A DNA stretch of 62,928 bases, counting the filler, from Stramenopiles sp. TOSAG23-6 (taxonomy: Eukaryota): the NCBI GenBank assembly GCA_900128565.1. It is 44 parts of 44 records of this genome, joined end to end, with 100 filler letters (N's around TTAATTAATTAA, not from the genome) between each part and the next. Parts side by side here need not be neighbours in the genome. Positions count along the whole stretch, not along the records: positions 1 to 1,349 come from LT639205.1; positions 1,450 to 2,796 come from LT639206.1; positions 2,897 to 4,243 come from LT639207.1; positions 4,344 to 5,689 come from LT639208.1; positions 5,790 to 7,134 come from LT639209.1; positions 7,235 to 8,578 come from LT639210.1; positions 8,679 to 10,021 come from LT639211.1; positions 10,122 to 11,464 come from LT639212.1; 36 more parts are not named here. One strand, given 5' to 3'. A program made the translations under genes and the position numbers. Within the stretch, counting starts at the first letter, position 1. Each line of letters begins with the position of its first letter. Below the pieces are notes generated by a model. That model was given only the letters and a program-made list of their open reading frames with translations. It made no database searches and was not told where the DNA came from. Shown piece by piece: positions 1 through 61,722 of the stretch.

Positions 1-100
1 TTTTTTTTAGAAATTTTTTTTTTTAGAAATTTTTTTTTTTAGAAATTTTTTTTTTAGAATTTTTTGTACCTAACAATTTTTTTTTCTGATATATTTGTAG

Positions 101-1349
101 CATTACATGTATACAATTTTACATAGTTCACGATGTTGGACTGCGTTAACTGGACATAAAAATGGTTTTGTTCATTTACGATATCCTTCTAGTTTAACGT
201 ATTTAAAAAAAGCTGAAGAAATGTCAAGATTAGATGCATTATTTGATACTTTTGCAACTGATACGAAACCGTCATTATTATCGATTGATAATCGTGGAGC
301 TTTACCTGAAGAAGCATGGCAACAATTACATGAAATGATGATTTGTTCTTCTAATAATAAATCAACAAATGTTTCTGTTGATACAAAGATTATTAATGAT
401 ATTACAAATAATGATACTAATAATGATGCTAATAATGATGATACAAATAATGGTACTAATAATGGTATAAATAATGATACAATACAGTCAACATTGAATT
501 GTCCAACTAAATATTGGTCATGGGATGATGATCGTTCTTTATTATTTGGTGTTTTAAAACATGGTCGAAATGAATGGACTTTAATATCAAATGATGCATC
601 ACTTGGATTTGAAAACAGAGCAAAACAAATTTGGTTTCAAGAAATGAAATCTACAACAAACGAAATAGTATCAAATGATCAAAATAATATGAAAAATATT
701 GAAGAAAATACGAAAATGATACAAAATTCTCAAACCAATACAAATGATACAAAAGATACAAATGATAAAACCAATACTAATGATATAAAAGATACAAAAG
801 ATACGAAAATTATACAAAATTCTCAAACCAATACTAATGATAAAACTAATACTAATGATACAAAAGATACAATGTGGAATAAAACATTTTGGTGGCCACA
901 TGAAACAAATAGTAAAGGTAAAATTGTTATATCATCAAAAATTTTATCACAAAGAGTTGCGAAATTACTTCGATGTGTTCAAAAACGTGATTCAATACTT
1001 GAAAAACAAAGTCGTTTATTGGAAAGAAATGCAAAAGCTGAATTAAAAAAACAAAAAATTGCAGAAAAGAAGGCGAAATATTTAGAAAATAAACGAATTC
1101 AAATTGAAAAAAAGAAACAAATTGAAGAATTGAAACAACAAAAAGCAGAAGAAAAAGCAAAAAAAGCAGAAGAAAAAGCCAAACAAATTGAATTGAAGAA
1201 ATTAAATGCTGCTGCAAAAAAAGAAAAAGAAGAAAAACGAAAGAAAAAATTGGAAGAAGAAAGAGAAAAAATTCGTTCTAATTTTTTCAAACCAAAATCT
1301 GTATCATCTGAAACAAATGGAAAGAAAAATATTAAAAAAAAATCAAAAG
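101..1349 (+). CDS. Exon fragment with a CHD-type SANT/SLIDE-like motif and a Lys/Glu coiled coil (possible chromatin remodeller)
   Basis: WSWDDDRSLLFGVLKHGRNEWTLISNDASLGF resembles the CHD motif W...D..LL.G..KHG...W..I..D..L.F; preceded by a family intron ending TAG at 100. Confidence 0.5.
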
Positions 1350-1449
1350 NNNNNNNNNNNNNNNNNNNNNNNNNNNNNNNNNNNNNNNNNNNNTTAATTA
1401 ATTAANNNNNNNNNNNNNNNNNNNNNNNNNNNNNNNNNNNNNNNNNNNN
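1350..1449. other. Artificial contig linker N44-TTAATTAATTAA-N44 (first of 43)
   Basis: Identical 100-nt spacer with stops in all six frames recurs every ~1.42-1.45 kb; flanking contigs decrease steadily in length. Confidence 0.98.
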
Positions 1450-1506
1450 ATTTTGTACCTAACAAATTTAAGTTTTTTTTTTTTGAAATATTTTTTCACA
1501 ATACTT

Positions 1507-2746
1507 GGCTTTTTCTCCGGATTCGAAGAATTTTCAGTCAATTTCAGAATATATTGACTATATGTACGCGCACTCTATTCATATTTTTGATAGTTTTTAT
1601 GATACGCTGGATGCGTCGTCGTAACCAAATCATTAATTTTGCAGCTTTAAGTGGAATTGTGCCTCTTCCTCAGTTTGTCCCGGGTTCAGCTGTACTAATG
1701 CACGTTTTCATCATGAATTTTAATTTTATTTTTTTTGGTACGAAATTTTGTACCTAACAAATTTAAGTTTTTTTTTTCGTAAAACTTTTTTTTTTTCACA
1801 ATACATGTTTGAGGACGATTCCGCGGGACATGACGTTATTAGTTTTATTACTGTCGTGGGATATTTCATAATTGCATGTATCTCATTGTTATTGTATAAA
1901 AAAAGTCTTTATTCGATATATCATTTTCATAGAGAAATACACGAAATATGTAAAGATTTTTATATCAGTGGTACTTCCATAATTTTTTATTCATTAGCGG
2001 TGATTAGCATGACGATTTCATGGATCTTGCGTATAGGTACAATTGACGCTGTGCCTATTTCGAGTACATATACACAAATTATCTTTGCAATTACTCTACT
2101 GCTGTTTCTTTGTTCTATGGTACAATGTACGATCCAATCATGAATTTAAGAATTTTTCTTTTTTTTTTTAAGATTTTTTTTCGTACGAAATTTTGTACCT
2201 AACGAGTTTTTTTTTCACAAAAAAAAAAAAATCACAAGAAAATTTGTACCTAACAAATTTCATATTTTTGAAATATTTTTTTATAATACATTGAGTATGA
2301 ATTTTGGTGCTGTAGAAAAAGATTGGAAAAACAGAAATGGATTTCTTTGGGATCATTCTGTTTCTTTTTTACTTTTATCTCTACTTTCAATTCTTTTTCT
2401 CATTCATCGCGCACGAAATACGGTTATTATTATCATCATTGTCATTATTTCATATTCCGTTGTCGGAATGTTACGACTTCAATCATGCAAAGAATTAATA
2501 GAAATACAAAATAAAGTATCAAAAAGAGGTCATGTACGTTTTTCATCATGAATTTTTTCCTACATTTTTTTTTCGTACGAAATTTTGTACCTAACAAATT
2601 TCGAATTTCGATTTTTTTATAATACATGGTGTTCTTGATGATGAGCACATATTTAAATATATGGGATTACGAACAGCAATTGTACTATACTGGCTTGGAC
2701 AAGCGTCGTATTTTAGCCTTGGAAACTCTCACTTAATTAGTACTAT
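1507..2746 (+). CDS. GPI ethanolamine phosphate transferase (PIGG/GPI7-like), C-terminal membrane part, 4 exons (1507-1699, 1807-2126, 2292-2533, 2628-2746)
   Basis: Many TM helices and YWLGQASYFSLGNSHLIST motif; frame is continuous only after removing 1700-1806 (GC-AT), 2127-2291 and 2534-2627 (GT-AT). Confidence 0.65.
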
Positions 2747-2896: not shown

Positions 2897-3838
2897 CAAG
2901 TTATCATCATATTCGATAACAGGTGTTTTAATTCTGAAATGACGCGACCCTTTGCTCTTCGCTGCATTGCACGACTCATTAAGATTGCACAAGATTATTT
3001 CCCAGAATGTTTGAAAAAAGTATTTGTTATCAATGCTCCGACTGTATTTCAGATGGCGTGGCACTCAATTATTAAACCATGGGTTGATCCTAAAACTCTA
3101 GATAAGGTTAGTCTTCCATCTGGTGCATGTACTTTTTAATTATGAATTTTAATTTTTTTGTATGAAATTTCTTTTGTACCTAACGTTTTTTTTTCTCAAT
3201 ATCTTTACAATCCATGCCCTGGAGAAGGTTTAAAGATACTGGAAGAATATATAGATTTGAGTAGCATACCAGTATGGCTGGGAGGCACTGCCGATCTTCC
3301 GCTCGCAGTGAAATTCGAAAATTGCCGACCAGTAAAATTTAGTAATGAAGAATTAATAAAAAGAATGTATCATCCAGAAAACGACGTCAACATCAAATTG
3401 ATAAATGAAAACATTGAAAATTATTCTACCCAACTGGCTCTTTGTGGTCGTGATAAGATGTTTTGGTACAATGTTGGACGAGGTAGCACACATACAATGT
3501 ATATGGTAGTTCCCCCAGGGCATACTTTATCGTGGTATATGAAACTGAATAATTACAATATACTTTTTTCTATACAATATAAAAATACAGAAGAAAACAA
3601 AATAGACACAAATACTGTTTTACTAAAACCTACGGTATGCAATACTCATTTTAGTACTTTAATATGTCCTAGTGAGAATAAAGTTGGATTTCGTGTTGCG
3701 TTTTTGATGGATAATTCTGCGTCATATTTTCGAAGCAAAACTATTCGATTTGGCGCTGTTATACATTCTAGTACTAAAATTGAAAAGGTAGAAGGAATTG
3801 GTGCGAAAGAAGTTGAACTAGATTTGAATAGTCTCTAG
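2897..3838 (+). CDS. Sec14/CRAL-TRIO plus GOLD domain lipid-transfer protein, 3' part with one intron
   Basis: QDYFPECLKKVFVINAP..F..W..IKPWVDPKT; YID..IPVWLGG; GOLD-like DNSASYFRSKTI. Confidence 0.85.
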
Positions 3839-6835: not shown

Positions 6836-7134
6836 TTACTGTTGTTTACACTGTTGTTCTCCATTTTCATCGTCCTTTATTTCATTTTTTTCGCCTGATG
6901 TCATCATGTATTTTGGAAAAATATTTCAAAAAAAAAAATCGTTAGGTACAAAATTTTTATAAAAAAAAAAATAAATTCGATTTTTTTGTAAAAAAAAAAA
7001 ATAAAACGTACATGTCATGGTTGTAGACAATATCAAATTGAGAGTCTAATAACGGTTCTCCACGAATCTTGTCTATTAATTTCATCGACTTATCTGTTAT
7101 GATGTTAGTGTCTGAAGAAACATTTTCTTTTTCT
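6836..7134 (-). CDS. 3' end of a hypothetical gene with one GT-AT family intron
   Basis: Removing the ~6906-7011 intron gives ..YNHDMMTSGEKNEIKDDENGEQQCKQQ-stop. Confidence 0.4.
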
Positions 7135-12320: not shown

Positions 12321-12419
12321 TCTGAAAAAAAAATATTTTCAAAAAAAAAAAACGTTAGGTACAGAATTACGTACAAAAAAAAAATTTCAAAAAAAAAAAA
12401 TATTTTTGCACAATAATGA

Positions 12420-12529
12420 CATGTTATACAAAAATCACCTACATATACAAATGATCCTAATGAAGCATGTCTGTTTGTCCCACCTATTGATACTTTATGC
12501 CTATATGTATGTTTTACTTTTTTTCAATT

Positions 12530-12571
<42 letters not shown>

Positions 12572-12808
12572 TTTTTTCCTAAAAAATTTTAATTTTTTTT
12601 TTTTTTTTAGGATTTTTTTTTTTTTTTTTTTTGGTAAAAAAAATTTGTACCTAACAAAAATCCAATTGAAAATTTTATATTTTTTTTACATATAGGGTTC
12701 AGAGTAGCATCACACAAAAAGTATTGAGATCCGGTTATGACATTGCTTTTCCTCTATCATTTTATCGATGTCGTTTTACACAACAAACAGCTGAAAATCA
12801 AGAGGAAC
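12420..12808 (+). CDS. Exostosin (GT47) glycosyltransferase fragments
   Basis: Manual translation SPTYTNDPNEACLFVPPIDTLC and LRSGYDIAFPL matches EXT-family motifs. Confidence 0.6.
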
Positions 12809-13166: not shown

Positions 13167-14348
13167 ATGCAATTGTTTTTTGTGTGTATCGTCCATTCTA
13201 GAACAATTTGGTTTGTCTTTTAAGTCCCTCCAGTGTTCAGATGATGTTAATGTATTTTAGAAAAATATTTGAAAAAAAATCTAAAAAAATTTGTTAGGTA
13301 CAAAATTTTTATAAAAAAAAAAATTCATACAAAAAAAAAAAAAAATAAAACATACATTTTTTTTTGGCATGAATTGATTACACGAAATCAAAGCCATTCG
13401 AAATAGATCTAATGTTGGTGCAACACTTTTAGTACATTTTGTTGCCTCTTCATATAATTTTAAAACATTTTTCCAATCTTTTGAATATAGTAATACTTTC
13501 ATTGCATCACAATGTATTGTGAAAAAAATGTGAAAAAATTTAAAATTAGTTAGGTACAAATTTTACTATGAAAAAAAAATCGGTACATTTTTTTGTAAGA
13601 AATTAGGGTTAGGGTTAGGGTACATAGCTTTTCGTGTTGGGTATTATATTATTTTGTTTCATCGTTTCAAGAATATATAGAACTTTAGTTGTAGACGAAT
13701 TTCCAATTTGATTTGTATTAAAACCTAAGACTGATCGAATAGTCTGAAAAATTGAAATTGAATCAATTGTACCATTTAAATTACTAGGGTTAGGGTTAAT
13801 GTTGGACAATTCCAATTCTGATTTTTGTGCAAGCAACGCATAAGAATACGATGTAAGAGTAGGATTGATACCATTCGAAGTCATTTTTTTCAAAATTAAA
13901 AGAGCTTCATTTCCTTCACTAGCTCGAGCACATGCTTTTAGTGAATGATTAAACGTTTTAATATCAGGTTTTACTTTTCGAAATGCAGAGTCATATTTTG
14001 TGAAAAAATATTTCAATTTTTTTTTTAAATTAAAGTTAGGTACAAAATTTTCAAAAAAAAAAAAAATTTAAAATAAAATAAAATAAAATCGGACAACGTA
14101 CTAACTCCATTTGCCCAAGAATATCACGAGTCATCATCCAATCACCACAATCTGCAGAGATATTTAGAGATTCATTATACATACTTAACGAAGGATAGAT
14201 GCCTCGAGTTGACATTTGACCAAATATCCATGTAATTTTGAGAAAATTATGAAAAAATTAAATTTGTTTGTTAGGTACAACATTTTTTTTTTTCCGTAAA
14301 AAAAAAAAAATTAAAAAAAAAAAAAAAAACGTACAAGGAATGCCAACG
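13167..14348 (-). CDS. Pentatricopeptide-repeat (PPR) protein fragment, several exons
   Basis: PDIKTFNHSLKACARAS..EALLILKKMTSNGINP; MSTRGIYPSLSMYN; interrupted by family introns. Confidence 0.8.
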
Positions 14349-21709: not shown

Positions 21710-22969
21710 GTTTTACGACCAACAACAACAGATGTTGACGGTAAGCAATCAAAATCACAAAATAATTTACCAACAAAACAAGAAGTTGTTGTATGGTTGA
21801 CTCTAACTTCACACCAACAAGCATTATATCATGCAATGCTTGAAAAGACACAAGAAGAACAAGATAGGAGAGACGATATCGCTGCAGAAAATGGAGATAT
21901 TGCCGAAGGAAGATGTATCTTAAAAGAATTATGTGAGCTAGTACAGATATGTAATCATCCTCTTCTTGTTGCTGAAAAAGAATTTGGTAAGAAAGATTTG
22001 TCAAGTTCGAAAGATGTCCATAGACGTGATAATACGAATCGTAAGTATCGCGATTTTGACATGTATTATGAAAATGATGAAAGTATTTCATCCAATAGTG
22101 ATAATGATATAAGAAATATTGAAATGAATAGAAATGTTGAATCGGATGTAGAGTCTGATATTGAAAACAAGAGACTTGAGGATGATGTGAAATCAAAAAA
22201 TGTACGTAAATTGTTATTATCGGCCTCGAGAAAAACACCTGCAAAGATTGAATTTGTTAGTGCTTTGTTACGGAATTTACATACTGAAGGGCACAGAGTA
22301 TTAATATTTAGTAGATCTTGTAGAATGCTTGATCTCATAGAGAATTTCGTACTTAAAACTGCCAAATATAAACATTATAGACTTGATGGAAGTATTCAAG
22401 ATGCATCAGAAAGAGCTCAGTTGATTGAAAAGTTTAATCGAAAAAAGGATATTTTTTGTTTTTTAATTACTACACAATGTGGAGGTGTAGGTATTAATCT
22501 AACAGGTGCCGATCGAGTCATTATGCTTGATCCTGGTTGGAATCCAGCAGCTGATGAGCAAGCTGTTGATAGAGTATATCGAATTGGTCAAACTCGGCCA
22601 GTATTGGTATATAGGTTAGTTACATGTACGTTTTCACATCATAAATTTATTAATTGTTTTTTTCATAGGAAATTTCGTACCTAATGATTTTTTTCATGAT
22701 TTCNTTTTTTTTTTCACAATACATGTGGTGGCGCAGAGGAACATATTTATAGACGTCAGATTTTTAAAGGATCTTTGAGTCGTTCAGCAATTGAGCAAGA
22801 TTTTAAAGCAACGAGACATGTATGTTTTACTTTTTTTGAATTTCAATTTTTTTTTCGTACAAAATTTTGTACGTAACAAAAAAAACAAAAAAAACATATT
22901 TTTCACAATACATTTCAAAGCAAAGTGTGGCAGTTCCAGTGGAGTCAAAGCAAAGTGTGGCAGTTCCAG
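21710..22969 (+). CDS. SNF2-family helicase C-terminal half (ERCC6/ERCC6L-like); copies in the next three contigs
   Basis: ICNHP, HRVLIFS, RLDGS, GGVGINLTGADRV, DPGWNPAADEQAVDRVYRIGQ; VYRLVTC|GGAEEHIYRRQIFKG restored across GT-AT intron 22626-22724. Confidence 0.9.
22626..22724 (+). mobile_element. Representative introner-like GT-AT intron (more than 50 core-motif copies in the window by eye count)
   Basis: GTACGTTTT...GAAATTTCGTACCTAAT...TTTTCACAATACAT; removal restores SNF2 VTCGGAEE. Confidence 0.75.
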
Positions 22970-34384: not shown

Positions 34385-34540
34385 ATGTATTTTGGAAAAA
34401 TATTTCAAAAAAAATCTAAAAAAAATTGTTAGGTACAAAANNNNNNNNNNNNNNNNNNNNNNNNNNNNNNNNNNNNNNNNNNNNTTAATTAATTAANNNN
34501 NNNNNNNNNNNNNNNNNNNNNNNNNNNNNNNNNNNNNNNN

Positions 34541-36116: not shown

Positions 36117-37167
36117 CATGAAGAGGTTATAGCAGCTACTCCAATTCCAATGTCTGTCAAAATTTTACACAAATCACCATATAATGTACATTTATTTTTA
36201 GAAAATATTTCAAAAAAATCTAAAAAATTTTGTTAGGTACAAAATTTCGTACGAAAAAAAAATTCTATTTTTTTGTAAAAAAAAAAAAAAAAATTGTTAG
36301 GTACAAAATTTCGTACGAAAAAAAAATTCAAATTTAAAAAAAAAAAAAATAAAACGTACAATGTGTGATTAACTGATCGTTATCAAAATTCAAAAACATA
36401 TCAACCATATTATGAGGCACTTCGCACCAAATACGAATTTCTTGCAAAATTTGAAATTTTATTTTTGGTAAACTTTCAGATGAATGTAGTATTGGATAAA
36501 TTGCTTTTTCCCAAAGAACAGCCAATTCAATTTTAATAAGAGCACGAAATCGGTTCCATAACACACTAAGCAGTTTTGTTCCTTCAGAAAATATGGGTAA
36601 TAATGTTTTTGTTACACATGTACTTTGTAACTATATATTATTATTCTTTTTGTTATTGGTTAGTTGGTTGGTTAGGTACAAAAAAATTAAATTTCAAAAA
36701 AAAAAAAATTTTAATAAATTTCAAAAAAAAAAAAAATTGAAAAAAAATTGAAAAAAAAAAAAAAATTGAAAAAAAAAAAATTTTAACTTTAAATTTCAAA
36801 AAAATATTCAAAAAGACTACATACATGACAAAGATTTCCCAACAACAAGAATAGCCATTCGACGTACACACAAACAAAAACGCCTTGAAGAACAAAAAAC
36901 ATCACCACTATCATTTAATGTATTTTGGAAAAATATTTCAAAAAAAAAATTTTAGAAAAAATTGTTAGGTACAAAATTTTTTTACCAAAAAAAAAAAAAA
37001 TTTCGATTTTTTTTTTACCGGAAAAAAAAAAAAATAAAACATACATAGCTTTGCTATACCACGAATTACGCAGGTTTTCAATTCAATATCTTCAGATAAA
37101 TGTGTTGTTTGACTTGCTAATTTCCAAATTGAATTTTGATCAACTGGATGAGGATGAGGCCAATGTC
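36117..37167 (-). CDS. Sec7 Arf-GEF (BIG/GBF/MON2 family) N-terminal region fragment; duplicate contig at 37398-38725
   Basis: LWNRFRALIKIELAVL...P..MVDMFLNFDND (HUS-box-like); five or more family introns. Confidence 0.65.
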
Positions 37168-40252: not shown

Positions 40253-40858
40253 AAACAAATGTAGCATCTTTCATCAAAGAGCTTACATCTGAAGAATTTC
40301 GAGAGGCGGTTCCTTCACGAGCCGCTTCATTCATATTTACACGAAAAGGTGGACCATTATATTGTGATACAATGCAAATGTATTCTTTTTTTTCGTACAA
40401 AATTTTGTACCTACCGAATTTTTTTTTGAAATATTTTTTCACAGCACATAGTAGCTATTTTTACCCCTATTTGTAAATTTCTATCCGCTGTTGGTAGCGC
40501 TATACAAAAAGGTTTTATAGCATGTTGCAAGGCAATCAATTCCTGCTATAAAGCAGTGTATGATAACATACTTAAACCGATTGGAAATGGGATTTATTGT
40601 GTTTACTTAGCAATTTGGACTTCAATATTTAAACCTCTTTTTGGCGCTATTGCGACATGTGGACGGGCAATCCGTGACAATATTCTTGTGCCTATTCGAG
40701 ACAATGTGCTTATACCTTTGCGTGAAATGATAAAAAAAGTTTTAAGTGCAATAGCCAACGCAATTAAAGCAGTGCTAAATGCAATAGCCAACGCAATTAA
40801 AGCAGTGCTAAATGCAATCAGCTCAGTATTTTCGGCAATTGGAAAAGCACTAGGCTAA
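40253..40858 (+). CDS. Hypothetical protein C-terminus with amphipathic repeats, one AT-ending intron
   Basis: Frame joins across ~40380-40449; IKAVLNAIANA tandem repeat. Confidence 0.5.
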
Positions 40859-41347: not shown

Positions 41348-42549
41348 AATCAATGTTGAAAATAACTATTAATATGACCTACTACTTACTACTTGGTGAT
41401 GAGACCGATTTTAAGGTGTCACAACAGAAACGTTGACCGCTGACTTATTTATATATGACGATGATGGCCGAGGATGTTATATATTATTTTGATATCCATC
41501 CACATAGCTTAAATGATTAAATCATTCATGGAGGAATACAGAAATACACTGGAAAACTAGCAACTGTATTGGAGCGGCNNNNNNNNNNNNNNNNNNNNNN
41601 NNNNNNNNNNNNNNNNNNNNNNTTAATTAATTAANNNNNNNNNNNNNNNNNNNNNNNNNNNNNNNNNNNNNNNNNNNNCGGAGTCACTGATTCCCCACTA
41701 TTAGCTGTTAAAGCACAAACAAACATCACACAACATACCAATATACCAATCTCTTCCTGCTCTCCTCCTCCTTCCTCTGTGAGCCTTTTACTGGTATTCT
41801 ATCATCATCAGAGCGTACAGGTATATATCATCATCAGTGTGTGTGCTAACATCCATCAACCAACAATCAATCAAATAAACCAATACCTTTGCGACCGACG
41901 AATAAACTATTTGTTTCATTTTTGTAAATGTGAAAACATGAGTTGACAGATTTAACTGTCAAAGATGAAAATAAAAACGATAAACCAACAACCAGTTACG
42001 AGAACAGAAGCGTTACTTGCGTGATATTGTTAGATTTAACAGCATCGCAAGATTTAAAATGAAACCTAAAAAGTTGACTTTGGAGGGAAAGGATGGGGCA
42101 CGACGCATCGTTTTTAGAAACTACTCGCCGTTTGACACGAAATTCTTTGGCAAACGTGAGACTATCGGAAACTATTTTAACAAACCACAGGGAGGTAATG
42201 TGATAAAGCGTGGGTTCGATCAAAACGTTGGTAAGAAGAGGAATCGTGGTACGTTGAAAAGAATGCTCTCAAATAAACTGGAGCCTTTAGAGAAGCAAAC
42301 CAAACTTGCTATTTACGAATTGTTGAAAGCAGAGATGCAAAACAAAAGTTGAGAACGAATATTTTGGAGAGTGGTGTACATAATATGAAAATAAAATAAA
42401 CACGAGTATGAAATTCCGTGATAATTTCTGTTTTTGAATATTTCATTTAAATGAAAGAATTTTACCATACACGGTATTTCTTTCTTGCTTAGTACTTTGT
42501 ACTTCGTATTTCTTACGTTAAGTCGTTACCTTTACTCGCGTGTCTCTGG

Positions 42550-43104: not shown

Positions 43105-44429
43105 AGTACAGTTAATGATTTGTTAATTTGTTTTGCTTCCATAAATCGTTCCCCTTTCACACCCTTTTTTTATTGAAATATACCAAATAAAATGTTTTTG
43201 TTGATATTAGGTACAAAATTTCGTATGAAAAAAAAATGAAAAAAAAAATTAAAAAAAATTGTTAGGTACAAAATTTCGTATGAAAAAAAAATGAAAAAAA
43301 AAAAATTTAAAAAAAAAATTAAAAAAACTTACACTTTTTCGTGTTCTCTCAGATCCAGCTAAATCAACAAAAAGAAACTGTTGCCTAATTAAAATCCGTG
43401 GATTTCGTGTACTTTCGTTTTTTTCTGAGTATTTGTTTTTGGTAGAAAAACTTGTAAGATGAAGTTTAACAAGGCAGTGTGATCGAGACGAATGATCATT
43501 CAGTTTATGACCAGCAGAACGTCTTGATACAATATTTAAAAAAAAAAAAAAAAAAAATCGTTAGGTACAAAATTTCGTACGAAAAAATATTCNAAAAANA
43601 TTCAAAAAAAAAAATCGAAAAAAAATCGNAAAAGATGTTGAAGAACATANATGCTTCCACATGCATTACAAATTGAGCAACATCAGTCTCATTTTTTATC
43701 GGCCANAGTTTTTCACCGACAGTCGCAAANTNTCTATTTTTCGTGTCTTTCTGATTTTGAGTCAAAGTATTTAAATTTTTTGAATTTTTTGAATTTTTTG
43801 AATTTTTTGAATTTTTTGAATTTTTTAAATTTTTTGAATTTTTATTCTTACATTCTAAAGTTAACCGACTTTTTGCTTGAAAACAACGAAAACATTGACA
43901 TGTAGAAGGATGTGCAAAATCACCNCCACCTGTTGTTCTGTGATCTCTTGCTCCGAATTCGCATGTTTAGTAAAAAAAAAAAAAATCAAATATTTTTTGT
44001 TAGGTACAAAATTACCTACAAAAAAATTTCGAACAAAAAAAAATTGAAATTTGAAAAAAAAATGAAAAAACGTACAACCACCTCCTCGTACCACAACTGT
44101 ATTTCTAGGTTTCGTTCTGGATATTTGTAATGGAGATGAATCATTCAGCAAATCATATGCCACATTATTGTATACTTCAATCGCAGTGGCCTGTAATGTT
44201 GCACCATTTGCTACGTTGGATCGTAGCAAAGAAAGAGCTATGCGAGGTAAAATTCCCCATGCATTTGGCACATTTTTAACATTTGGAACATTTTTAACAT
44301 TTTGCACATTTTTAACATTTGGCATACAAACACTATCTTTAGCACTACTCTTAAGCGCCGATTCAGTAAGACAACCTTTTGGTCCAAACATTGTGTACGT
44401 CTTGCCAGAACCTGTCTGTCCGTATGCTA
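43105..44429 (-). CDS. Kinesin motor domain fragment; duplicate contig at 44530-45854
   Basis: AYGQTGSGKTYTMFG, EVYNN.AYDLL, NDHSSRSH, FVDLAGSER, INKSLTVL across three introns. Confidence 0.92.
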
Positions 44430-45954: not shown

Positions 45955-46831
45955 TCTCGAGAAAACCTTTTTATAAGACTTTAGTCTCAAATCAAATGAA
46001 AAATCAAGGAAATTGTCAGGAGAATTCCACAACTTTTATTCTAGCACCCATTGAACGATACTCGTATGTATGTTTTCAATTTCGAATTTCAACTTTTTTT
46101 TTTTTTTTTCATACGACATTTTGTACCTAACATTTGTTTTTTGATTTTTTTGTTTTTCACAACACATTGGATGCCAAAGTGGGCTGTGGACAGACCTGTA
46201 TATGTTGAAAGTGACGGAAAACATAGTCCGTTTTTAAGTTCATGGTTTATTCATATACCCGATTTATCTTTAGATACAAATAGTACAATTTCAATATATG
46301 ATTCTTTAGATGCCATTTCACAAGGTAAACAAATTAATGGAGTCAAAAGTGAAGAAAATAGTACTCAACAAATTCAAAATTCGTTAGGTACAAAATTAAC
46401 TACAGAATCTCAAGATTCAATTTCGAATTTGCAAATTTCTGATCCTCTCATCAAAAGAATGAAATATTTATTGAACAATAATAAAAGACAATCTTGGGTC
46501 GTTGCTCGAACATGTAAAGGAACAAAATGGAAAATTCAAAAACAGGACAAAATGATTCAACGTGCTCCTAACTCTAAAAATCATAAAAATCATAAAAATC
46601 ATAAAAAAATAGTAAAGATAAATCAAATGAAACATCGCAAAAATCGATTACGATTACCTAAACATTTGCGTGATGTTCGAACAAGACAAAATGTAAGAAA
46701 TCATAAAAATAATAAAAATGAATTTCTTGCTGTTTTACATAAAAAACGAAAGCACAATAGTAACCCTGACAAGAACAAGAACAAAACAAAAAAAACAAAA
46801 AAAACAAAAAAAACAAGAAAAAAAAAAAAAA
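45955..46831 (+). CDS. Hypothetical Lys-rich protein fragment, one family intron
   Basis: Open frame after acceptor CACAACACAT at ~46167; no domain recognised. Confidence 0.35.
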
Positions 46832-48856: not shown

Positions 48857-50036
48857 ACTCTCTTTCGAGATTCGCACACCAAGGGGATCAATATCAAAAA
48901 CAAAGCGCATTGAAGGTAAAACTTCACTTTTATCTTCATCGTTTTTATCATTATTTGTAACGTAATATGTATGCGAATCTACAGTATATTGAAAAGTGTT
49001 GTAAAACCTTTCCCATAATGATTTATTATACACCAATGAAAATTTCTTCAAAAATTCACTATTTTTGACTAATTTCATCAGTTGAAATGGAATTGTGTAT
49101 CCTTGAATTTCTGTTTGTACTAGTTTCAAGTAATGTTCGTAGGATTCATTTTTCTTACTGACAAAATTTTGCCCACCCAAAGCATTCATATTTGGTCTAT
49201 TTGGCAAGGTATCTCGAAAGTGAAGACTTGATTCAGAACTTTCATGTACTGTGAAAAAATAGAAATACTTTTTAAATGTTAGGTACAAAATTTACTATGA
49301 AAAAGTTTTTCGAAAGTCAATTTTGAAAACGCACATGAAGCATTTGAGCGTGATCGCCAAATGTTAAATATTCAATTGTGTGACTCATATCAACCTCCTC
49401 ATCGTTAAAGTCATGCCATGGTGAATAAACAGTAAACAAAAGGGATCCCGGTACTAATGATGCATCAAAATGACCAGTAACTTTACATCCAGGCTCCAAC
49501 TTTTCAATTTCAGGTTCTAATCGCCTCTGCTTACCTAAGTGTTTTTTGGAAAATCTTTTCTTCTTTGTTGCTCTGTTGAGAGCTTTCTCAAGAGATGCCA
49601 TGCCAATCAACGCCTCGTCACGCAATTTTGCTTTTTCTGAATCATTTTCATTCAATTTTTGAAGCGTTTTTTCTGAGCTTTCATTTTTATCATTTTTTAA
49701 ATACGTCCTATATTGAATTTCTTTTTTACATTCTGATAAACAAGTAAAGGGATCATGAGGGCACAAAGATTCCTTGGCTCGAATAGTTTTCCCATCAAAA
49801 ACACATTCACAATATCCTGAATTGCCGGTTGGGACTGTCGATGTACAAATACGATCGTTGTCTGGTTCTGGGTGCCCAGAGGGATCACAACCTGCAGTTT
49901 GTCGCCAAGCAATGCATTCTTCTGTTTGTGTTTTTTTAATATTGTCTTCACCAAATTCTTTCGATTCGATAAACTTTGGATCATCTTTCAATTTGGGCAG
50001 ACTATCTATTTTCCTTATAAATGCTGAGACAGTGCG
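48857..50036 (-). CDS. ERGIC/Erv41-Erv46-type ER vesicle protein (COPII-coated ERV C-terminal domain) fragment
   Basis: PGCKVTGHF..VPG, DMSHTIEYLTFG, YEHYLKLVQT, FQYT, LPSMRFVFDIDPL; GT-AT intron 49244-49334. Confidence 0.85.
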
Positions 50037-50311: not shown

Positions 50312-50359
<48 letters not shown>

Positions 50360-50407
50360 CTAACCCTAACAAAACATATCAAATATTTGACATATTTTTT
50401 TTTCAAG

Positions 50408-51447
50408 TGTAGAGTTGAAACAAAAAATTTGATTACAGAAATTTTACATTTATTATTTAAAAACAAATTAAATAAAACAAACCTGTCCCATCTACGGACG
50501 GCCTGGGGAAGAATTGCAATTGAAAGCCTTACGACAATGCAAAATACAAAAAATACAAAAAATACAAAAAATACAAAAAATGAATATGAAGATCAGTACA
50601 GACGAAATTCGTATAGTATGCTTATCTACCGGATTATACAACCTACATTTCAGTGCCAGGTTTGTTCCACACTGATTCAAGAATTACATAGTGCTGTATT
50701 GAATGGATTTTCAACATCATCTCAAGTATCCTCGAATAAGTATGTTATTTTTTGTAGGGTTATTCCTACTAACCCAAAATTATGTCAAATATTAAAAAAA
50801 AAAAAAAAAAAAAACTTTTTTTTTTTTTTTTTTCGTAGTAAATTTTGTACCTAACCAATTTTTTTTTTTTTTTTTCACAATATAGATTGTCATTCACAAA
50901 AAATACAAAACGTGATCTGAATAACCCTAACCCTACGCTAAATATAGACTGTAATAATATCGAATATAAAAATACTAGAATTATTATTGATATTCTTAAA
51001 ACAATGACAGTATTAGCTGATGAAGCAACAGGTACGATACTATTATTTATTTTTTTTGAAAAAAAACTTTTTTCATAGTAAATTTTGTACCTAACAAAAT
51101 GTTTTTTTTTTTTTTTTGAATTTTTTGAATTTTTTTTTTGTCATACGTGCAGTAATATAAAATACTCAAAATACAATTTTAAACTCTGTACAATATTTTC
51201 TTGCACATTACATCAACAGATTTGATTACTTACCCACAATTGCTATGGACTTCTTGTGCACTATTGTTAGCGTGTAACCCTAACCCTAACACGAAATCGT
51301 CTTTTATGCCTTCAAAATCACAAAAGGACATTATCTATCCTACTCTTTCTCTTCTTTCAACTATTATAAGAAAATCTGATTTAAAATCACCATTAGCTCG
51401 ACAAGTTGCATTAGCTACTTTACCTAAACATTGGAGAAATTCACAAT
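50408..51447 (+). CDS. Furry/Tao3/MOR2-PAG1-like fragment (exon structure unresolved)
   Basis: LRTAWGRIAI and YPQLLWTSCALL resemble the MOR2-PAG1 C-terminal region. Confidence 0.45.
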
Positions 51448-51652: not shown

Positions 51653-52975
51653 TTGTTGTACTATTTGCCATACAATTTCTAACCATTGTATGAAAATTGG
51701 AGATACTTCAGTTTCATCTGCATCAGCACCACTATGACCACATCTATGATGAAACATATGACCAAAACTGCACCATTCTTTTTCAATAAGCACAGCAAAA
51801 CCATCGAGAGTTCTATAAAATGGATCTAAAATAAGTTGTGCAGTGGCACACAACTGAGTTGTTCTATCCCATCCATCACTACAATGGACAACACAAGCTG
51901 CACCTCGTTCTAATCTACGAGCAATTCGTACAGCACCATTTAATAGCATTGAAGTATAATAAGGCCATTTTGTATTGGATAATGCGACTAACCAATTCAC
52001 ACCAGAATTGTTTGTTGAAGTCGTCACAGTGTCTTCTAAAGATCGTCGGCGATTCACCAAAAATCCACCACTCGCTGAAATTGGTTCATTCATTGTTTGT
52101 ACTCTTGTTCGAGCCTGTGCTTGTACACCAGCGCTTTCAGCCAGGCGAACAACTGCTTTATGACTCGTTCGTATTGCATGTATTCTAAAACAATATTTCA
52201 AAAAACAATGAAATTCGTTAGGTACGAAATTTTCTTTGTACAACAAATGGTACAGTAATAATGAAATGTACATGAATATTATCAATATCAAGAAAATGAA
52301 CCTGTGCTACTTGTTTTCCACCGAGAAGATTAATCGCTTCATATCCTCGGCCAGCGACGGCATTCGCTTGTGCTGCCAATCGTGATCTAGCATCAAATAT
52401 ATGTAGTGTTTCACATGGCTCAAGAGAAGTAGATACATTCCTATTACCACCTACACCAGACCCCGCATGAAGAGAAATTTCTGCAACTTGCTCAGGAGTT
52501 TTTTTGGCAACTGTTGATCGAATTGCTTGTAATAAAAGTGTATCATAAATCAATTTTCTTCCAATGACACCTGCAAGTGGCTGAGAGCAACGACAAAGTG
52601 GTGCTCCATTGGTAGGATGCAACCAAGTGAGCGCTGGTAATCTACGTTTAGCTCTCTCAACAGCCGCTGCTCTTAAATTACTTTTGACAAATGACCGTGG
52701 AAAAGCGAGTTGAGATGGATACGTTGGACAAATACTATAATCATTGTTAATATCCGTAACAACCCATTTTGGATTACCATGAAGACCAATTCGTCTATAA
52801 TCTCGAGATAATCTTTGTCCAAGTTTGCCAGTGTTTGATTGTTTGTTTGCTTGTTCTTTTTGTATAAAACGATTCGTACTTGATGATATTGAATTTTCTA
52901 AACGATTACTTTCAGGTGATATAAAAGACACACCTTCTGATACTATTGATATATTTTTGTTTTTTTAATTATTTT
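51653..52975 (-). CDS. Myotubularin-family phosphoinositide phosphatase fragment
   Basis: CPTYP, RCSQPLAG, IDNIH|AIR across GT-AT intron 52178-52271, VHCSDGWDRT, LIEKEWCSFGH.F. Confidence 0.95.
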
Positions 52976-53075: not shown

Positions 53076-54294
53076 CCTGCTGTGATACATGTAGATGAGG
53101 ATATATCAACATTTTCATCATGGGCGGAAAATATTTGTGATTTATTATTATCAACAGAAAAGAAACACAATGAAAATATTGTCCATTCTACTAAAAAAAT
53201 TGACGAATTAAAATCTGAGTTTGCATTCACAGCATTAGCAGAGTACAGTGCATCGCAATTTCAATATAAAGAAAATGTTGAACATCAATTATTACATGAA
53301 AAATATGAAATAGAAAAGAAAAAAAATCAAAGGACAATTAAAAATCAACAAACAAAACATATGAAAAAAATGGAATATTTAGAATTTGAAGTTAAAAATG
53401 CCAAATTTGAACTAGAACAAGCAAAGACAAAATTAAAAGAAACCAATATTGTACATGATGAATTTGAAGCTTTTAAACAAATGTCTGAAAATTCTTTTGA
53501 AACATTGAATTCAGTCATGATTAAAGAAGAAAAAGCATGTACGATTTTATCATACATTTTTATATTTATTTATTTTTCGTACGAAATTTTGTACCTAACG
53601 ATTTTATTCTTCAAATATTGTTTTTAATTGTACATGTAATGATGCTATGAATTGTCTTGAAAATGAATATAAAAATGTAATTTATTCTGAAAATGAAATA
53701 CAAGAAAAGAATAAAAGATATGAAAATGAAATAAAAAATGTAATTTATTCTGAAAATGAATTACAAGAAAAGAATAAAAGATATGAAAATGAATTACAAG
53801 AAAAGAATAAAAGATATGAAAATGAAATAAAAAATGTCACTTTACTTTTGAGTAAAGAACGTGCAATTGTCGATACAACATTCAATGAAAATATACAACA
53901 AAAACAACAGTTACAAAACAATAAACAAAAGATTACAACACTACAAGAAAAAATACACGAAATGGAGATGTCTATGGATACTAAAACACACGAAATCAAT
54001 GAAATACATACGGAAACAATCCGAAAACATGCAAATCAATTAAAACATATCAGTAAACAATCCATCGAGTCATTAAACAAATTCAAAATTCATCATAAAG
54101 ATGAAAAAATGAAATTAATTCATCAAAATACAATTTTACATGAAAAAAATACACGAAATCAAAATAAATTGTATGAATTGAAAAATATTTGGATTACGAA
54201 TAAAAAAAATACACGAAATAGTGAGACAAAGTTAAATTATAATTTTAATGCTTGTGAAAAAACTCTTGAAGATTTAGAAAATATTTTTCATTAA
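53076..54294 (+). CDS. Coiled-coil protein, 3' part, one GT-AT intron (~53539-53635)
   Basis: Heptad-rich E/K/Q/N frames join as EKAC|NDAM; tandem ENELQEKNKRY repeats. Confidence 0.6.
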
Positions 54295-55708: not shown

Positions 55709-56685
55709 ATATATTGTGAAAAAATATTTTTTTTTGTACAATTTCGTATTTGTTAGGTATCAAATTAAAAAAAAAAAATGTTGAAAAAAAAAATTTAAAA
55801 AAAAATTTTAATTTTTTTTTTNNNNNNNNNNNNNNNNNNNNNNNNNNNNNNNNNNNNNNNNNNNNTTAATTAATTAANNNNNNNNNNNNNNNNNNNNNNN
55901 NNNNNNNNNNNNNNNNNNNNNGGGGCGGGGAATGGGGTTACTTTTTCGAGCCGGTTTTTTTTTTTTCTTTTTGGAGAACCCCCCCGGGAATCCCCGGGAA
56001 TCCCGGGAATCCGGTAGTGATACAATTCGGCTAAATATAAAAAAGGGGTTCATGAAAGTGCCCGATCTTTTGAAATGACGCATGCACGAGCCTACCCTTT
56101 GCGGTAGTTGACTGCTCTGGGTTCATTTATCGNNNNNNNNNNNNNNNNNNNNNNNNNNNNNNNNNNNNNNNNNNNNNNNNNNNNNNNNNNNNNNNNNNNN
56201 NNNNNNNNNNNNNNNNNNNNNNNNNNNNNNNNNNNNNNNNNNNNNNNNNNNNNNNNNNNNNNNNNNNNNNGGGGCGGGGAATGGGGTTACTTTTTCGAGC
56301 CGGTTTTTTTTTTTTCTTTTTGGAGAACCCCCCCGGGAATCCCCGGGAATCCCGGGAATCCGGTAGTGATACAATTCGGCTAAATATAAAAAAGGGGTTC
56401 ATGAAAGTGCCCGATCTTTTGAAATGACGCATGCACGAGCCTACCCTTTGCGGTAGTTGACTGCTCTGGGTTCATTTATCGTGTTTCGTCTCAAACAGCG
56501 AAGCTGTGGCGAGCCATGGATGAGCGGATTGTTGTCGAAATGCAGTGTCTAGCTGCAAAACTCAAGGACCTTGGACAAATTGATTCTCGCGTCACAAATG
56601 TTGCGCAGGACCTAAAAACCCTGTCACGCTTGGTTTCAAGTGGTGGGCACGTAAGGCATCAATCAATTGAGCCTATCGCTTCCAA

Positions 56686-57244
56686 TCAGCAGACGAGTGC
56701 GCTGATGCAAGCCCCAACAAAGACAGCAAATATCCCAAAAATTACGCCCGCGAGAATCTCCATCGGGAGTGATGCTGCGGCAGGTGGTGGCACGGGCGTC
56801 GTGGGCGCGGACGTTGGCGAACCTGTCACAGGAGACGCAGTGGGACTGTCGGTCGTTGGGCTCAGCGTCGGAGACTGGGTGGGTGAGTATGTGGGAGAGA
56901 CTGTCGAGGGCGACAAGGTCGTCGGGCCCTGCGTCGAAGGTGACGCTGTCGGGGTCACAGTTGTGATATCTTCGATCCGGCGGATGGCCGGAATCGGCTT
57001 GACCTGCGTCACGTACAGCACTGGCGTAGGCGTCAAAGGGTCGTAGGTCATACTCTGGACATATTTAAAACTTGCGTTGAGTCCGATGCCGTCGCGAATA
57101 TTCTCCTGACCTTCGCGTACAATTGATGTGACCATCCCAGAATCAAAATCGACGGCCCTGACGCCCCGATTTGTGGCAACGTACGAAACATTACGCGACG
57201 GTATAGATATGATACCCTTCGGTAAGCCAAATAAGGCACTCGAA
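56686..57244 (-). CDS. Mucin-like PTxSP-repeat membrane protein, C-terminal part
   Basis: TASPSTQGPTTLSPSTVSPTYSPTQSPT followed by a TM helix; GC-richer contig. Confidence 0.6.
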
Positions 57245-58666: not shown

Positions 58667-58765
58667 NNNNNNNNNNNNNNNNNNNNNNNNNNNNNNNNNN
58701 NNNNNNNNNTTAATTAATTAANNNNNNNNNNNNNNNNNNNNNNNNNNNNNNNNNNNNNNNNNNNN

Positions 58766-60023
58766 AGGAAGAATCCGATTCGTCGATAGAAACAGAGCGG
58801 CGGTGACAGTTTCACGGGAGCAATGATACATCAGGGTGTGAAAGAAGTTTGTCAGTACATTTTTCTTCAAAGTGCGCTTTGTACTACCACTAATCAACTC
58901 AAAAGCTTCAGCCAAAAATAGATATGGACATTCAATTGATTTCCAACCACTACACCATGGTGCAAGATAAATATATTGGGGTTCAAATTTGAACGTATCC
59001 ATTGTAAGGCAATTACTAGTAAGGTAGGTGTTCGGTATTGTTGATGATGCACCAGATGCTCGTGTATTTTTTGTTATTGACGTCCTTACTCCATTTTGAC
59101 TATTTTGACTAGATGTCATATTATTAGTTATTGTTGACTTACTAGTTGCTTTAATTTTACTAGACGGTGTATTATTATTATTATTATTATTATTACTTGT
59201 TGATGTAGTAAATACTGATAAATTCATATCAGATAATGTACTATTTGTTTTTTTTCTAGTAGAAATAGATTCAGATTTCTTTTCACAGGACATCGTCTTT
59301 GCTTTACGCTCAGCTCCACAAATACGACATTTCCTAAGAGTGGCGATATTGAGTAAAGTGCACTTTTCACAAGCCCATTGCGGCTTAAAAAACGACAAGA
59401 TGCCGCCATTCACTTTAACTTTGGGTTTCAAGTTTGACTCCTTTAATGCTATTGTTTTTACTTTTTCTATTTCAGTTGATCGTTCTACTAATGGTGCTTT
59501 TATGTAATTTGATGTTTTTGTTTCTAAAACTTTCACCTTTTTTGTCTGTGGTTGTTGTGTGAACTGTGCAAAGAACTTCCGTTTTGAGGCAGTTCGATCG
59601 ATCAAATTCCTAAAACATTGCATAATTTTCTTTCGTTCAGCTTCATCAGAAAATACATGTGGGACAACTTCGTGTGGTTTAATAAATTTAACAAATTCGC
59701 ATAATTCTTCATTGTTGGAATGTTCAGAGTATGGAATTATTGTTACGGCATGTGTCTTTGATTTATTCTCAATGTGATTATTTGTTCGATTCCATTTAGA
59801 TGACGCAGCCCATCCCGTTGGAATGATTCCCTGTTTGCGAAAAAAATATGTGAAACAAAAATCTTGTTAGGTACGGGATTTCGAACAAAAAAAAAACTAC
59901 ATTTGAAATTCATCATGAAAACATTCCAGTACATTTCGATCTCGAAGATTATGCTTTTCAAGATATTTGTTCAATGTATAAAAATTTGCTTGAAAAAAGG
60001 GGTACATTTTACCACAAGTTCCC
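58766..60023 (-). CDS. SNM1-type beta-CASP/DRMBL domain, RanBP2 zinc finger and DNA ligase N-terminal domain (LIG6-like)
   Basis: GIIPTGW, IPYSEHS..EL.EFV..IKP..VVPT; W.C..CT..N......C..C; PYLFLAEAFELISGSTKR..K..LTNFF. Confidence 0.7.
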
Positions 60024-60186
60024 ATGTATGATGAAAAAATATTTCAAAAAAAAAACTAAAATTTGTTAGGTACAAAATTTCGTACGNNNNNNNNNNNNNN
60101 NNNNNNNNNNNNNNNNNNNNNNNNNNNNNNTTAATTAATTAANNNNNNNNNNNNNNNNNNNNNNNNNNNNNNNNNNNNNNNNNNNN

Positions 60187-61448
60187 GGGCTATAGGTGAA
60201 GTTGATCAAATCGAATTCAATCGTGTAGTCGATGTTGATAGAATCGATAATCATGCATTATCAACAAAAATCATTGATCAAGTGCAAGAGTATTTTACGG
60301 ATCTGCAACAAACAACAGAGTATTACCAAAAGTTACGTAATAGAGATTTCATATCGAAAACGGATATTGTTCTTTCTGGAGACGGAATCCGCGAACTTGC
60401 TCTTTTGTCAGGTCTTGTTCATGTAAAAGAAGTGTACGTTTTCGAATTTCAGTTATTGCGACTATTTTGAAAATGTTTTATATTTGATATTTCTCAATGA
60501 CTCAATATTTCAATGTTTTTATATCACTTCAAATATAGGTGGGTCGAAGAAAATCAAATTACAAGCCTTGTTGGATTACCAGCACTTCCTCAACTAAAAT
60601 TCTTGTACGCGATACTACTACCATTCGTCAATATAATCAACAATGTTTTATTGTTTTATATTCTATATTTTTCAATGACTCAATATTAGAATGTTTTTTA
60701 TATCACTACAAATATAGGTATCTCAGACATAATAAAATCAGAAGCATTCGCGGATTACCTGTACTTCCTCAACTGAAAGATTTGTACGTGATAATTGTAC
60801 CATTCTCTACTATAATCAACAATGTTTTATATTTAATATTTTTGAATGACTCAATATTATAATGTTTTTTATATCACTACAAATATAGGTGGCTAGATCA
60901 TAATCACATTACAAGCTTTCCTCAACTGACACAATTGTACGTGATAGTTGTACCATTCCTTAATATAATTAACAATGTTTTATATTCTATATTTTTCAAT
61001 GACTCAATATTATAATGTTTTTTATATCACTACAAATATAGGAGTCTCAGACATAATAAAATCAGAAGCATTCACGGATTACCAGTACTTCCTCAACTGA
61101 CAATATTGTACGTGATACTACTACCATTCTCTACTATAATTAACTATGTTTTATATTCTATATTTTCAATGACTCAATATTACAGTGTTATTTATATCAC
61201 TACAAATATAGGAGTCTCAGCAATAATCAAATTACAAGCTTTCACGGATTACCATTACTTCCTCAACTAGAATCGTTGTACGTGATACTACTACCATTCT
61301 CTACTATAATTAATTATGTTTTATATTCTATATTTTCTAATGACTCAATATTACAGTGTTATTTATATCACTTCAAATATAGGTTTCTCATGCATAATGA
61401 AATTACAAGCTTGGATGGCATACCAGTACTTCCTCAACTAAAATGGTT
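60187..61448 (+). CDS. Leucine-rich-repeat protein, one 22-aa LRR per exon (exons to 60433, 60539-60604, 60718-60783, 60889-60936, 61042-61107, 61212-61277, 61383-61448)
   Basis: Each phase-2 exon encodes LxLxxNxIxSxxGLPxLPQLxx; introns are GT-AG and near-identical. Confidence 0.85.
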
Positions 61449-61722
61449 GTACGTGATACTACTACCATTCTCTACTATAATTAACTATGTTTTATATTCT
61501 ATATTTTNNNNNNNNNNNNNNNNNNNNNNNNNNNNNNNNNNNNNNNNNNNNTTAATTAATTAANNNNNNNNNNNNNNNNNNNNNNNNNNNNNNNNNNNNN
61601 NNNNNNNAGGTCCATGAAATGTCAAAATATATTTCAAAATTTGAAATTTGTTAGGTACAAAACTATCTATGAAAACAAAATAGGTAAAAACTTCATAATG
61701 AATACAACGTACATGTTAGTGC

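Follow-up and report, generated by a model that had tools for sequence, protein, structure and literature searches.

A putative introner-like family of introns ending mostly in AT in the genome of a marine stramenopile

Nearly all of the introns that we observed in a window of the Stramenopiles sp. TOSAG23-6 genome (assembly GCA_900128565.1) carry one sequence core, and we consider it probable that they form an introner-like family whose members bring their own 5′ splice site and branch site and whose 3′ end, mostly AT, repeats the last 2 to 3 bases of the exon before it. The window, by which we mean the whole 62,928-nucleotide stretch analysed, is not one locus; it consists of 44 length-sorted contigs of 1321-1349 bp each, joined by N/TTAATTAATTAA/N linkers (e.g., at 1350-1449) that read as stops in all six frames. 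Eight contigs are exact copies of others (12=13=14=15, 16=17=18=19, 26=27, and 31=32), and raw counts over the window are therefore inflated. Except where the raw window is named, our counts refer to the distinct set of 36 contigs (47,962 bases).

Results

Motifs of the element occur far above chance. With at most one mismatch, TTTCGTACGAAA was found 42 times in the raw window against 0.34 expected (a count reached by 0 of 100 shuffles), and TTGTACCTAAC 74 times against 0.96 expected. The 9-mer core GTACCTAAC, at the same tolerance, gave 66 matches in 59 clusters among the 36 distinct contigs; after removal of five core matches that we judged to be chance or non-family, we count about 54 copies of the element, or about 1.1 per kb. 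The single intron family described in the original prediction is thus real, and its figure of over 50 copies holds for the distinct contigs, although the raw count behind it was inflated by about eight through the duplicates.

The element is a T-rich, non-coding segment of about 90-130 nt that lies on the coding strand of unrelated genes, including those for CRAL/TRIO, myotubularin, SNF2 helicase, RIH-domain receptor, PI-kinase, TPH-domain (PF13868), and DNA-repair nuclease proteins. Its consensus is (C)AT|GTAYGTTTT...TTTC[G/A]TA[C/G][G/T]AAATTTTGTACCTAAC...GAAATATTTTTCACAATACAT|G, and alignment bears out the layout first proposed for it, in which GTAYGTTTT is followed by T runs, a palindrome, TTTTGTACCTAAC, another T run, and GAAATATTTTTCACAATACAT; the conserved 3′ block reads GAAATATTTTT[C/T][C/A]A[C/A]AATACAT. 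Intron lengths range from 70 to 207 nt, most being 87-130, and the core is present in AG-ended introns as well. When the 25-nt core was aligned across 56 copies, columns 18-20, 22, and 23 proved invariant and ten further columns were at least 90% conserved. Fifteen of the 16 columns of the block AAATTTTGTACCTAAC fall into one or the other of these classes, as do those of the CTAAC branch motif, which is followed by a T tract.

Likeness among the copies appears to extend beyond shared splice signals. The string CAA[A/T]TT[C/T][G/A]A followed by a T run recurs in 9 places, and GAAATATTTTT has 19 occurrences, of which 13 lie 21-75 nt past a core; neither has a known signal role. Three linked substitutions, moreover, are common to 7 copies (the TTTCATAGTAAA variant) that reside in unrelated genes. 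Because such non-signal segments and multisite variants recur across unrelated genes, the alignments support one sequence family. Among 63 cores with 16 nt of upstream sequence, the most frequent 12-mers were TTTCGTACGAAA (12 cores), TTTCATAGTAAA (7), TTTCATACGAAA (6), and TTGGTAAAAAAA (3), and recurrent variants such as TTTCATAGTAAA look like subfamilies. The perfect 12-nt palindrome claimed for the core is therefore its commonest variant, but it is exact in only those 12 of the 63.

A role for the palindrome as a selected hairpin, also suggested at the outset, gained no support, as pairing was near the shuffle level (73% of cells paired versus 70% in shuffles, with 55 of 500 shuffles as high). 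An alternative GTACGA/TTGTAC stem was paired in 68% of cells versus 67% in shuffles, and a slid control scored higher (75%). G-C pairs were broken in 19-23 of 40 distinct rows, and the common variants lacked compensation; both structures were rejected for want of covariation. As a separate observation, GTAC occurs at four spots in the element, namely, in GTACGT at the 5′ site, in CGTACG within the palindrome, in TGTACC within the core, and, in some copies, in GTACAT at the 3′ end, with examples within one copy at 2534-2539, 2575-2580, and 2587-2590. The palindrome also holds GTACGA, which could act as a second donor and is the donor form of three copies.

Donors and acceptors were chosen, with the consensus known beforehand, from listed candidate GT and A[T/G] positions, which yielded 31 complete copies; only the reading-frame test and the RNA contig described below are independent of this choice. 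Among 42 placed 3′ ends, AT accounts for 31, AG for 9, AA for 1, and CT for 1, which supports the scarcity of 3′ AG implied previously. Position -2 of the intron is A in 41 of 42 copies, and position -1 is T in 32, G in 9, and A in 1. At the other end, +1 is G in 41/41 and +2 is T in 42/42, with A at +3 in 38/42, G at +5 in 31/42 (C in 1), and T at +6 in 35/42. Past the core, 21 of the 33 non-AG copies contain no AG at all, and the remaining 12 would skip one. Between the putative branch A and the 3′ end there are a median of 40 nt (range, 27-92). Taken together, a GT with a U1/U6-type extended 5′ consensus, a CTAAC branch motif, and a T tract are U2-type features, with an AG end in only 9/42; U12-type features are not matched, the donor at +5/+6 and the branch-to-end distance both being off.

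The exon ends in AT before the intron in 33 of 42 copies, compared with a frequency of 10.8% for the AT dinucleotide in exons. With this AT usually repeated at the intron end, sliding by 2-4 nt is possible at many borders. No register other than GT fits all copies. An AT-AC register would need AT before the GT (present in 33/42) together with AC at -4/-3, and it is impossible in the introns at 13993-14101 (- strand; GTACGT...AAATAT, frame compatible, with a direct repeat of |G and none to the left) and 36190-36359 (- strand; GTACGT...ATAAAT, with a left direct repeat of 1 nt). In the intron of an IP3/ryanodine-receptor-like gene at 29788-29930 (+), which ends in AG (CACAATAAAG), that AG sits exactly where other copies have the AT of ACAT; RIH profile positions 33-120 are matched in the exon before it and 131-159 in the exon after it.

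For 25 of the 31 complete copies (chance, 1/3; P = 8.6e-8), excision from GT to A[T/G] re-establishes the reading frame, as judged from the longest open frames on both flanks of each copy. Where frames are well determined, 17 of 21 copies are compatible (P = 1e-5); by type of end, the figures are 18/23 for AT and 7/8 for AG. In these 25, the open frames that become joined lie on the strand of the copy itself, in agreement with the sense orientation that had been claimed. A cruder comparison of flanking open reading frames (ORFs), restricted to 44 clusters with a usable flank that had come through a rough family filter, found the sense frame longer in 25, the antisense frame longer in 4, and ties in 15. 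In an ARF-GEF-like gene on the - strand, removal of three GT-AT introns (36918-37044, also present in the duplicate contig 27; 36618-36824; and the two-core intron at 36190-36359) joins four exons into a single open frame of 180 aa, which contains FLNFDND. In the myotubularin gene, the exon upstream of the GT-AT intron at 52178-52271 (-) aligns to MTMR2 and to Pfam Myotub-related right to its end (...FLDIDNIH, with the final residue at chain residue 288 and profile position 176), and the exon after the intron aligns only past an insertion of about 44 residues.

RNA evidence comes from contig 23, where the genome holds the 5′ part of one intron (32470-32550, +), an N gap (32551-32686), and the 3′ part of the next intron (32687-32773, +), which ends ...CCAAAATAT. 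A polyA metatranscriptome supplies a 588-nt contig, 95-99% alike, that aligns to 32201-32468 and to 32774-32905, with 106 letters between the two alignments. Core variants differ on the two sides of the N gap, which therefore separates two introns. The homologue P0002 (496 aa, 69% identical) has exactly 36 residues between the same two exons, and P0003 also has sequence there; the codon boundary after the RNA gap is at 32776, so that 106 + 2 = 108 nt, or 36 codons. From the 36-residue match and the presence of two introns, it follows that the N gap hides a 36-codon exon of a TPH-domain protein (PF13868), along with the inner ends of both introns, and that the RNA contig is the spliced form; a reading of the contig as unspliced, with a retained intron, was dropped on this alignment. 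Identity between RNA and genome restarts at 32774, past the end of the repeat mask at 32757. The genomic bases immediately before 32774 are AT (...AAAATAT), and there is no AG from the core to this point. The RNA contig supports splicing at a non-AG end and, as an indirect reading of one locus, is consistent with the removal of two copies.

Independent DNA covers the first of these introns. In a DNA-run contig from another sample, the first exon runs straight into the intron (P0001 ends ...KARGMFYFYFLI), and in a protein search with this exon, the only match of near length was that read-through ORF, the two homologues being found among longer proteins. For the exon flanked by two copies, a search gave no match among proteins of 128-410 aa, and a 31-aa exon gave none in PDB. 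Seawater contigs from other samples differ from window positions 31702-32468 by 18 letters in 767 (about 2-3%); given this divergence and the intron retained at the shared site in one contig, several strains are present in the public data.

Further possible signs of a repeated, inserted element come from the assembly and from the intron borders. Of the 72 contig ends, at least 18 interrupt a copy, with three more spotted by eye, as is expected if the assembler breaks at a high-copy repeat. One contig is cut in this way at both ends, with the 5′ part of a copy (core cut by the contig end) at 33108-33165 (-) and a 3′ part at 34385-34440 (-). Exon and intron agree in their last two or more bases in 20 of 31 copies, compared with 15.5 when partners are permuted (P ~0.007), and in the last three or more in 11, compared with 6.8 (P ~0.013). 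An intron end thus agrees with the exon end of its own copy more often than with those of other copies, with CAA/CAA, AG/AG, and CAG/CAG among the cases. The repeat CAT|G is seen at both junctions of the complete intron at 2534-2627 (+; GTACGT...ATACAT, GT-AT), whose excision leads in frame from ...KVSKRGH to GVLDDEH.... A 7-nt repeat, TACAT|GT, borders the GT-AT intron at 22626-22724 (+) in a gene for an SNF2-type helicase, where excision joins ...VYRLVT-C-GGAEEHIYRRQIFK, and the GT-AT intron at 53539-53635 (+) has the repeat CAT|GTA.

Discussion

How such an element might operate can be set out as follows. Each copy carries a yeast-like 5′ splice site (GTAYGT), the nearly invariant branch-site block AAATTTTGTACCTAAC, a T tract, and the conserved 3′ block, and UGUACCUAAC is a candidate for the stretch that pairs with U2. 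The cut would run from GT to just past a terminal A-N (AT in about three-quarters of copies, AG in about one-fifth, and rarely another dinucleotide), and removal would fall to a spliceosome of the U2 type able to accept A-U at the 3′ end, for which 3′ site definition presumably depends on branch-to-end distance, on the T tract, and on the -2 A. The repetition of the last 2 to 3 exon bases at the intron end, usually as (C)AT, has the look of a short target-site duplication that would provide the 3′ splice site; this family may have spread by transposition of a nonautonomous element. More tentatively, and as a proposal that could easily prove wrong, we suggest that the routine intron of the major spliceosome in this organism ends at A-U, that an introner inserting at (C)AT|G supplies the 3′ site through a 2-3-nt target duplication, and that most introns are GT-AT as a result. 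In that event, nothing but the -2 adenosine, the distance from branch to end, and the T tract would define the 3′ site, which would amount to a natural, genome-wide loosening of the AG rule while the 5′ and branch signals stay canonical.

Several observations weigh against these interpretations. The end logos are partly circular, the borders having been picked with knowledge of the consensus, and the direct-repeat signal depends on a few copies with uncertain donors. Six of the 31 complete copies fail the frame test as placed: two have ambiguous flank frames (the intron at 14230-14334, with an upstream exon of only 14 nt, and that at 43963-44075, with N bases downstream), one comes after an A9 run, the borders of two are unclear, and one, in a WD40 gene (c20), requires GT-AA rather than GT-A[T/G]. 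No transposase, integrase, or reverse-transcriptase domain was detected in the 10 ORFs scanned (48 kb), and no terminal inverted repeat is clear beyond about 6 nt, the ends pairing no better within copies than between them. An exact 25-mer found no match in metagenome contigs, and 17-mer scans returned 64 loci in metagenomes and 6 in viruses, all of which lacked family-like flanks and are chance matches. Nor did the window contain an antisense or intergenic copy of the kind that random insertion would leave. At the single locus where a second strain is covered, that strain also has the intron, so that no polymorphism was seen there. Finally, the RNA evidence is one metagenomic contig of depth ~3.9 from a related strain; repeat masking dropped one joint and four loose ends of it, the 106 middle letters are unseen, and retention of a 106-nt intron, if less likely, would explain it as well.

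The copies might instead be old, immobile introns with very long constrained splice signals, perhaps homogenised by gene conversion, whose likeness reflects selection, as in hemiascomycete yeasts, Giardia, or Trichomonas. This would fit the fact that conservation is highest in precisely those signals that one would expect, namely, GTAYGT, TTTTGTACCTAAC, and the 3′ end, as well as the narrow lengths (70-207 nt, mostly 87-130), the presence of the core in nearly every intron observed, AG-ended ones included, the lack of a transposase in 10 ORFs, and the lack of polymorphism at the one covered locus. We nevertheless consider it unlikely, because selection on splice signals does not account for the segments without a signal role that recur in 9 and 19 places or for the three linked substitutions in 7 copies from unrelated genes. 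Contig breaks inside the element, moreover, require many sites to share identical stretches roughly a k-mer long, and the border direct repeats are copy specific.

It is less probable, though worth weighing, that the introns are removed without normal recognition of a 3′ site, their ends being brought together by pairing of CAUGUA with UACAUG across the junctions, as proposed for the nonconventional or "intermediate" introns of euglenids and diplonemids and for the introners of Amoebophrya. When eight copies were folded with 6 nt of exon on each side, the junctions were paired in the minimum-energy or the centroid fold of six; the borders lie within short direct repeats, as in Amoebophrya, and AG is missing from most copies. 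Yet the fold z-scores were weak in six of the eight (-0.35 to -1.4 in five and +0.97 in one, with -2.8 and -2.9 in the other two), and the copies' own ends formed 5.19 of 8 pairs, compared with 5.29 for permuted partners. Junction complementarity is thus a property of the consensus and not of single copies, and the near-invariant GT and CTAAC motif point to recognition by U1/U6 and by U2.

Assignment of the family to the minor spliceosome, whose U12-type machinery accepts GT-AT and AT-AN introns, is very improbable. The U12 5′ site consensus is [A/G]TATCCTT, and the branch site lies about 10-20 nt from the 3′ end; here there is no CC at +5/+6 (G at +5 in 31/42 and T at +6 in 35/42), the branch A is separated from the end by a median of 40 nt (27-92), and no U12-class snRNA was found in the window, though this covers only 48 kb. 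On the other side, CCTAAC loosely resembles the U12 branch motif, and GTATGTTTT resembles GTATCCTTT. U12 machinery can indeed splice GT-AT introns, seven of which are listed by Sheth et al. (2006, PMC1557818).

Lastly, an artefact (amplification or assembly chimeras) or a DNA-level feature such as ciliate-like germline-limited DNA is scarcely credible: the assembly is fragmentary, duplicated, and partly collapsed, and the borders do carry short direct repeats, but an identical exon-intron junction occurs in an independent DNA run from another sample, the RNA contig is without what the DNA holds, the standard code gives long ORFs, and DNA excision requires neither sense-strand placement nor splice signals.

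Comparison with known systems places the introner-like family near several of them. Introners are described in Micromonas, Aureococcus, and many aquatic protists (Gozashti et al., 2022, PMC9860276; 2025, PMC12130899), and in one mode of insertion the element carries one splice site while the duplicated target gives the other, wholly or partly (PMC9860276). Our family shares with these the many near-identical, short, noncoding introns in unrelated genes, the border repeats, the marine host, and, on our interpretation, the division of splice sites between element and duplicated target (PMC9860276). It differs in that its copies mostly end in AT and not AG, that a terminal inverted repeat, if any, does not exceed about 6 nt, and that it seems to make up nearly all of the introns observed and not a subset; transposition and a source element are here hypothetical. 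In Amoebophrya, introner elements occur among noncanonical introns (Farhat et al., 2021, PMC7789003), and the two systems have in common repeated introns with noncanonical, complementary ends (complementary here only at the level of the consensus) and no internal transposase in a marine protist (PMC7789003). The direct repeats of Amoebophrya are 3-5 nt long and overlap the borders, as ours also do; its terminal dinucleotides show no clear signature, and its inverted repeats are 8-20 nt long (PMC7789003). Here, in contrast, GT is invariant, the CTAAC block is strong, and the 3′ A-N is fixed and mostly AT.

Fritillaria borealis has noncanonical introns genome-wide, for which divergent duplicated U2AF paralogues have been implicated (PMC13326754), and its "AG-A(N)" pattern, with A-N at the 3′ side, is cited in PMC7789003. 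As in our family, the 3′ ends keep A at -2 and vary at -1; the 5′ end, however, is noncanonical in Fritillaria and canonical here. A transposon origin has reportedly been proposed for the Fritillaria introns. Animal genomes contain a handful of GT-AT introns each, mostly U12 type, with identical terminal dinucleotides and known machinery (Sheth et al., 2006, PMC1557818), whereas here such introns are about three-quarters of those observed and have U2-type signals. The nonconventional introns of euglenids and diplonemids have no conserved borders and no U1-complementary 5′ end, unlike the conserved GTAYGT of our copies. Seeleuthner et al. (2018, PMC5778133) name introns only twice, both times in methods. 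Our literature search found no GT-AT or introner family of this kind, although the supplementary tables of the introner surveys may list one, and a search by the 9-mer core gave irrelevant matches only. This family stands apart from the systems compared in that its 5′ site is canonical, its branch block strong, and only its last base changed.

Introners are the best-supported source of new introns, and how a new insertion gains working splice sites is central to the introner idea. The present element seems to bring textbook 5′ and branch sites and to leave the 3′ site, mostly AT, to target duplication. If so, this organism would separate the essential parts of 3′ site choice (the -2 A, distance, and the T tract) from habit (the -1 G), and would do so in thousands of natural substrates; the family could then show how the splicing machinery picks the end of an intron. 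There would be practical consequences too, since gene finders built on GT-AG, and introner screens that start from annotated introns, would miss a whole class of introns. Assemblers break or collapse at every intron in such genomes, hiding exons. The family is worth confirmation at the RNA level.

Individual copies and other features of the window

Among copies with AT ends, the intron of the CRAL/TRIO gene at 3129-3215 (+; GTACTT...ATCCAT) is complete and frame compatible, its upstream exon matching CRAL_TRIO profile positions 59-129. Also frame compatible are the GT-AT introns at 6906-7011 (-), whose fold pairs CAUGUA with UACAUG, and 46068-46167 (+), as well as NTATGT...TTGTAT at 43527-43650 (-) and GTGCGT...GTACAT at 49244-49334 (-). 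The last of these is of the TTTCATAGTAAA variant and folds with paired junctions (z = -2.9); the copy at 53539-53635, already described for its direct repeat, folds with a 12-bp junction stem (z = -2.8). The GT-AT intron at 22820-22913 (+) belongs to the border placement and frame test set. At 40380-40449 (+) lies the shortest complete copy, 70 nt long (GTATTC...GCACAT).

Copies with other ends include two frame-compatible introns ending in ATATAG, at 12507-12695 (+) and 50740-50885 (+), and an AG-ended intron (AAACAG) in a DNA-repair metallo-beta-lactamase gene at 59831-59932 (-). Another AG-ended, core-bearing intron, at 12322-12438 (-), has an uncertain donor (GTGATT). In the WD40 gene, the intron at 27598-27726 (-; GTATTT...ATACAA) has GT-AA ends, this being the sole acceptor that keeps the frame, and a direct repeat of CAA.

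Placement is less secure in some copies. Borders are ambiguous at 1704-1806 (+), where GTTTTC...ATACAT gives a stop and a shift of 1 nt is needed, and in the core-bearing candidate at 51032-51152 (+; GTACGA...GTGCAG), which is not frame compatible. The GT-AT intron placed at 13250-13355 (-) follows an A9 run and is off frame by 1 nt. Two further GT-AT introns have obscured flanks, namely, that at 14230-14334 (-), whose upstream exon is too short for the frame test, and that of a kinesin-like gene at 43963-44075 (-), whose downstream frame is hidden by N bases.

Five placed introns contain two cores. The one in a PI3/PI4-kinase gene (30879-31081, +), whose downstream exon begins at position 52 of the PI3_PI4_kinase profile and whose upstream exon has no match, is probably an assembly collapse across two neighbouring copies in which the exon between was lost. 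The others, at 2127-2291 (+; complete, GT-AT, and frame compatible), 35283-35448 (-; AG ended with CATACTACAG, frame compatible), 36190-36359, and 43164-43332 (-; GTAAGT...AAAAAG, AG ended, frame compatible), may be similar collapses or real tandem copies.

As regards the source, matching DNA was found in small DNA runs, seawater metagenomes, and metatranscriptomes, and the source is therefore a marine protist of an uncultured type. Its assembly is fragmentary, duplicated, and locally collapsed. The standard code reads long ORFs, and genes are closely packed, with spacers of about 270-390 bp. GC content per contig is 21-41% in all contigs except one (52%, at 55922-57244), which contains a Ser/Pro/Thr-rich ORF without a family match and may derive from another organism in the sample. 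An Rfam scan of the window gave no match, and hence no snRNA, U12 class included, within about 48 kb. The ORF at 41984-42352 (+) weakly matches the cwf18 pre-mRNA splicing factor family (E = 5e-5), below the cutoff (24.3 versus 26.1 bits).

Two minor observations concern sequences that resemble parts of the element. At 46383-46411 (-), a 20-nt stretch like the core and its flank (AATTTTGTACCTAACGAATTTTGAATTT) lies antisense inside a long open frame of the + strand; it could be a chance match or a fragment of an antisense copy absorbed into an exon. Telomere-like (CCCTAA)n runs occur inside introns and in one spacer, at 13600-13623 (-), ~27680-27695 (-), ~50925-50945 (+), and ~33990-34005 (-), and CCCTAACCCTA is counted 4+3 times in the distinct contigs. 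In the frame-compatible intron at 13512-13623 (-), the 5′ GTAC leads directly into such CCCTAA repeats. Permuting the telomere-like unit also gives the branch motif CCTAAC.

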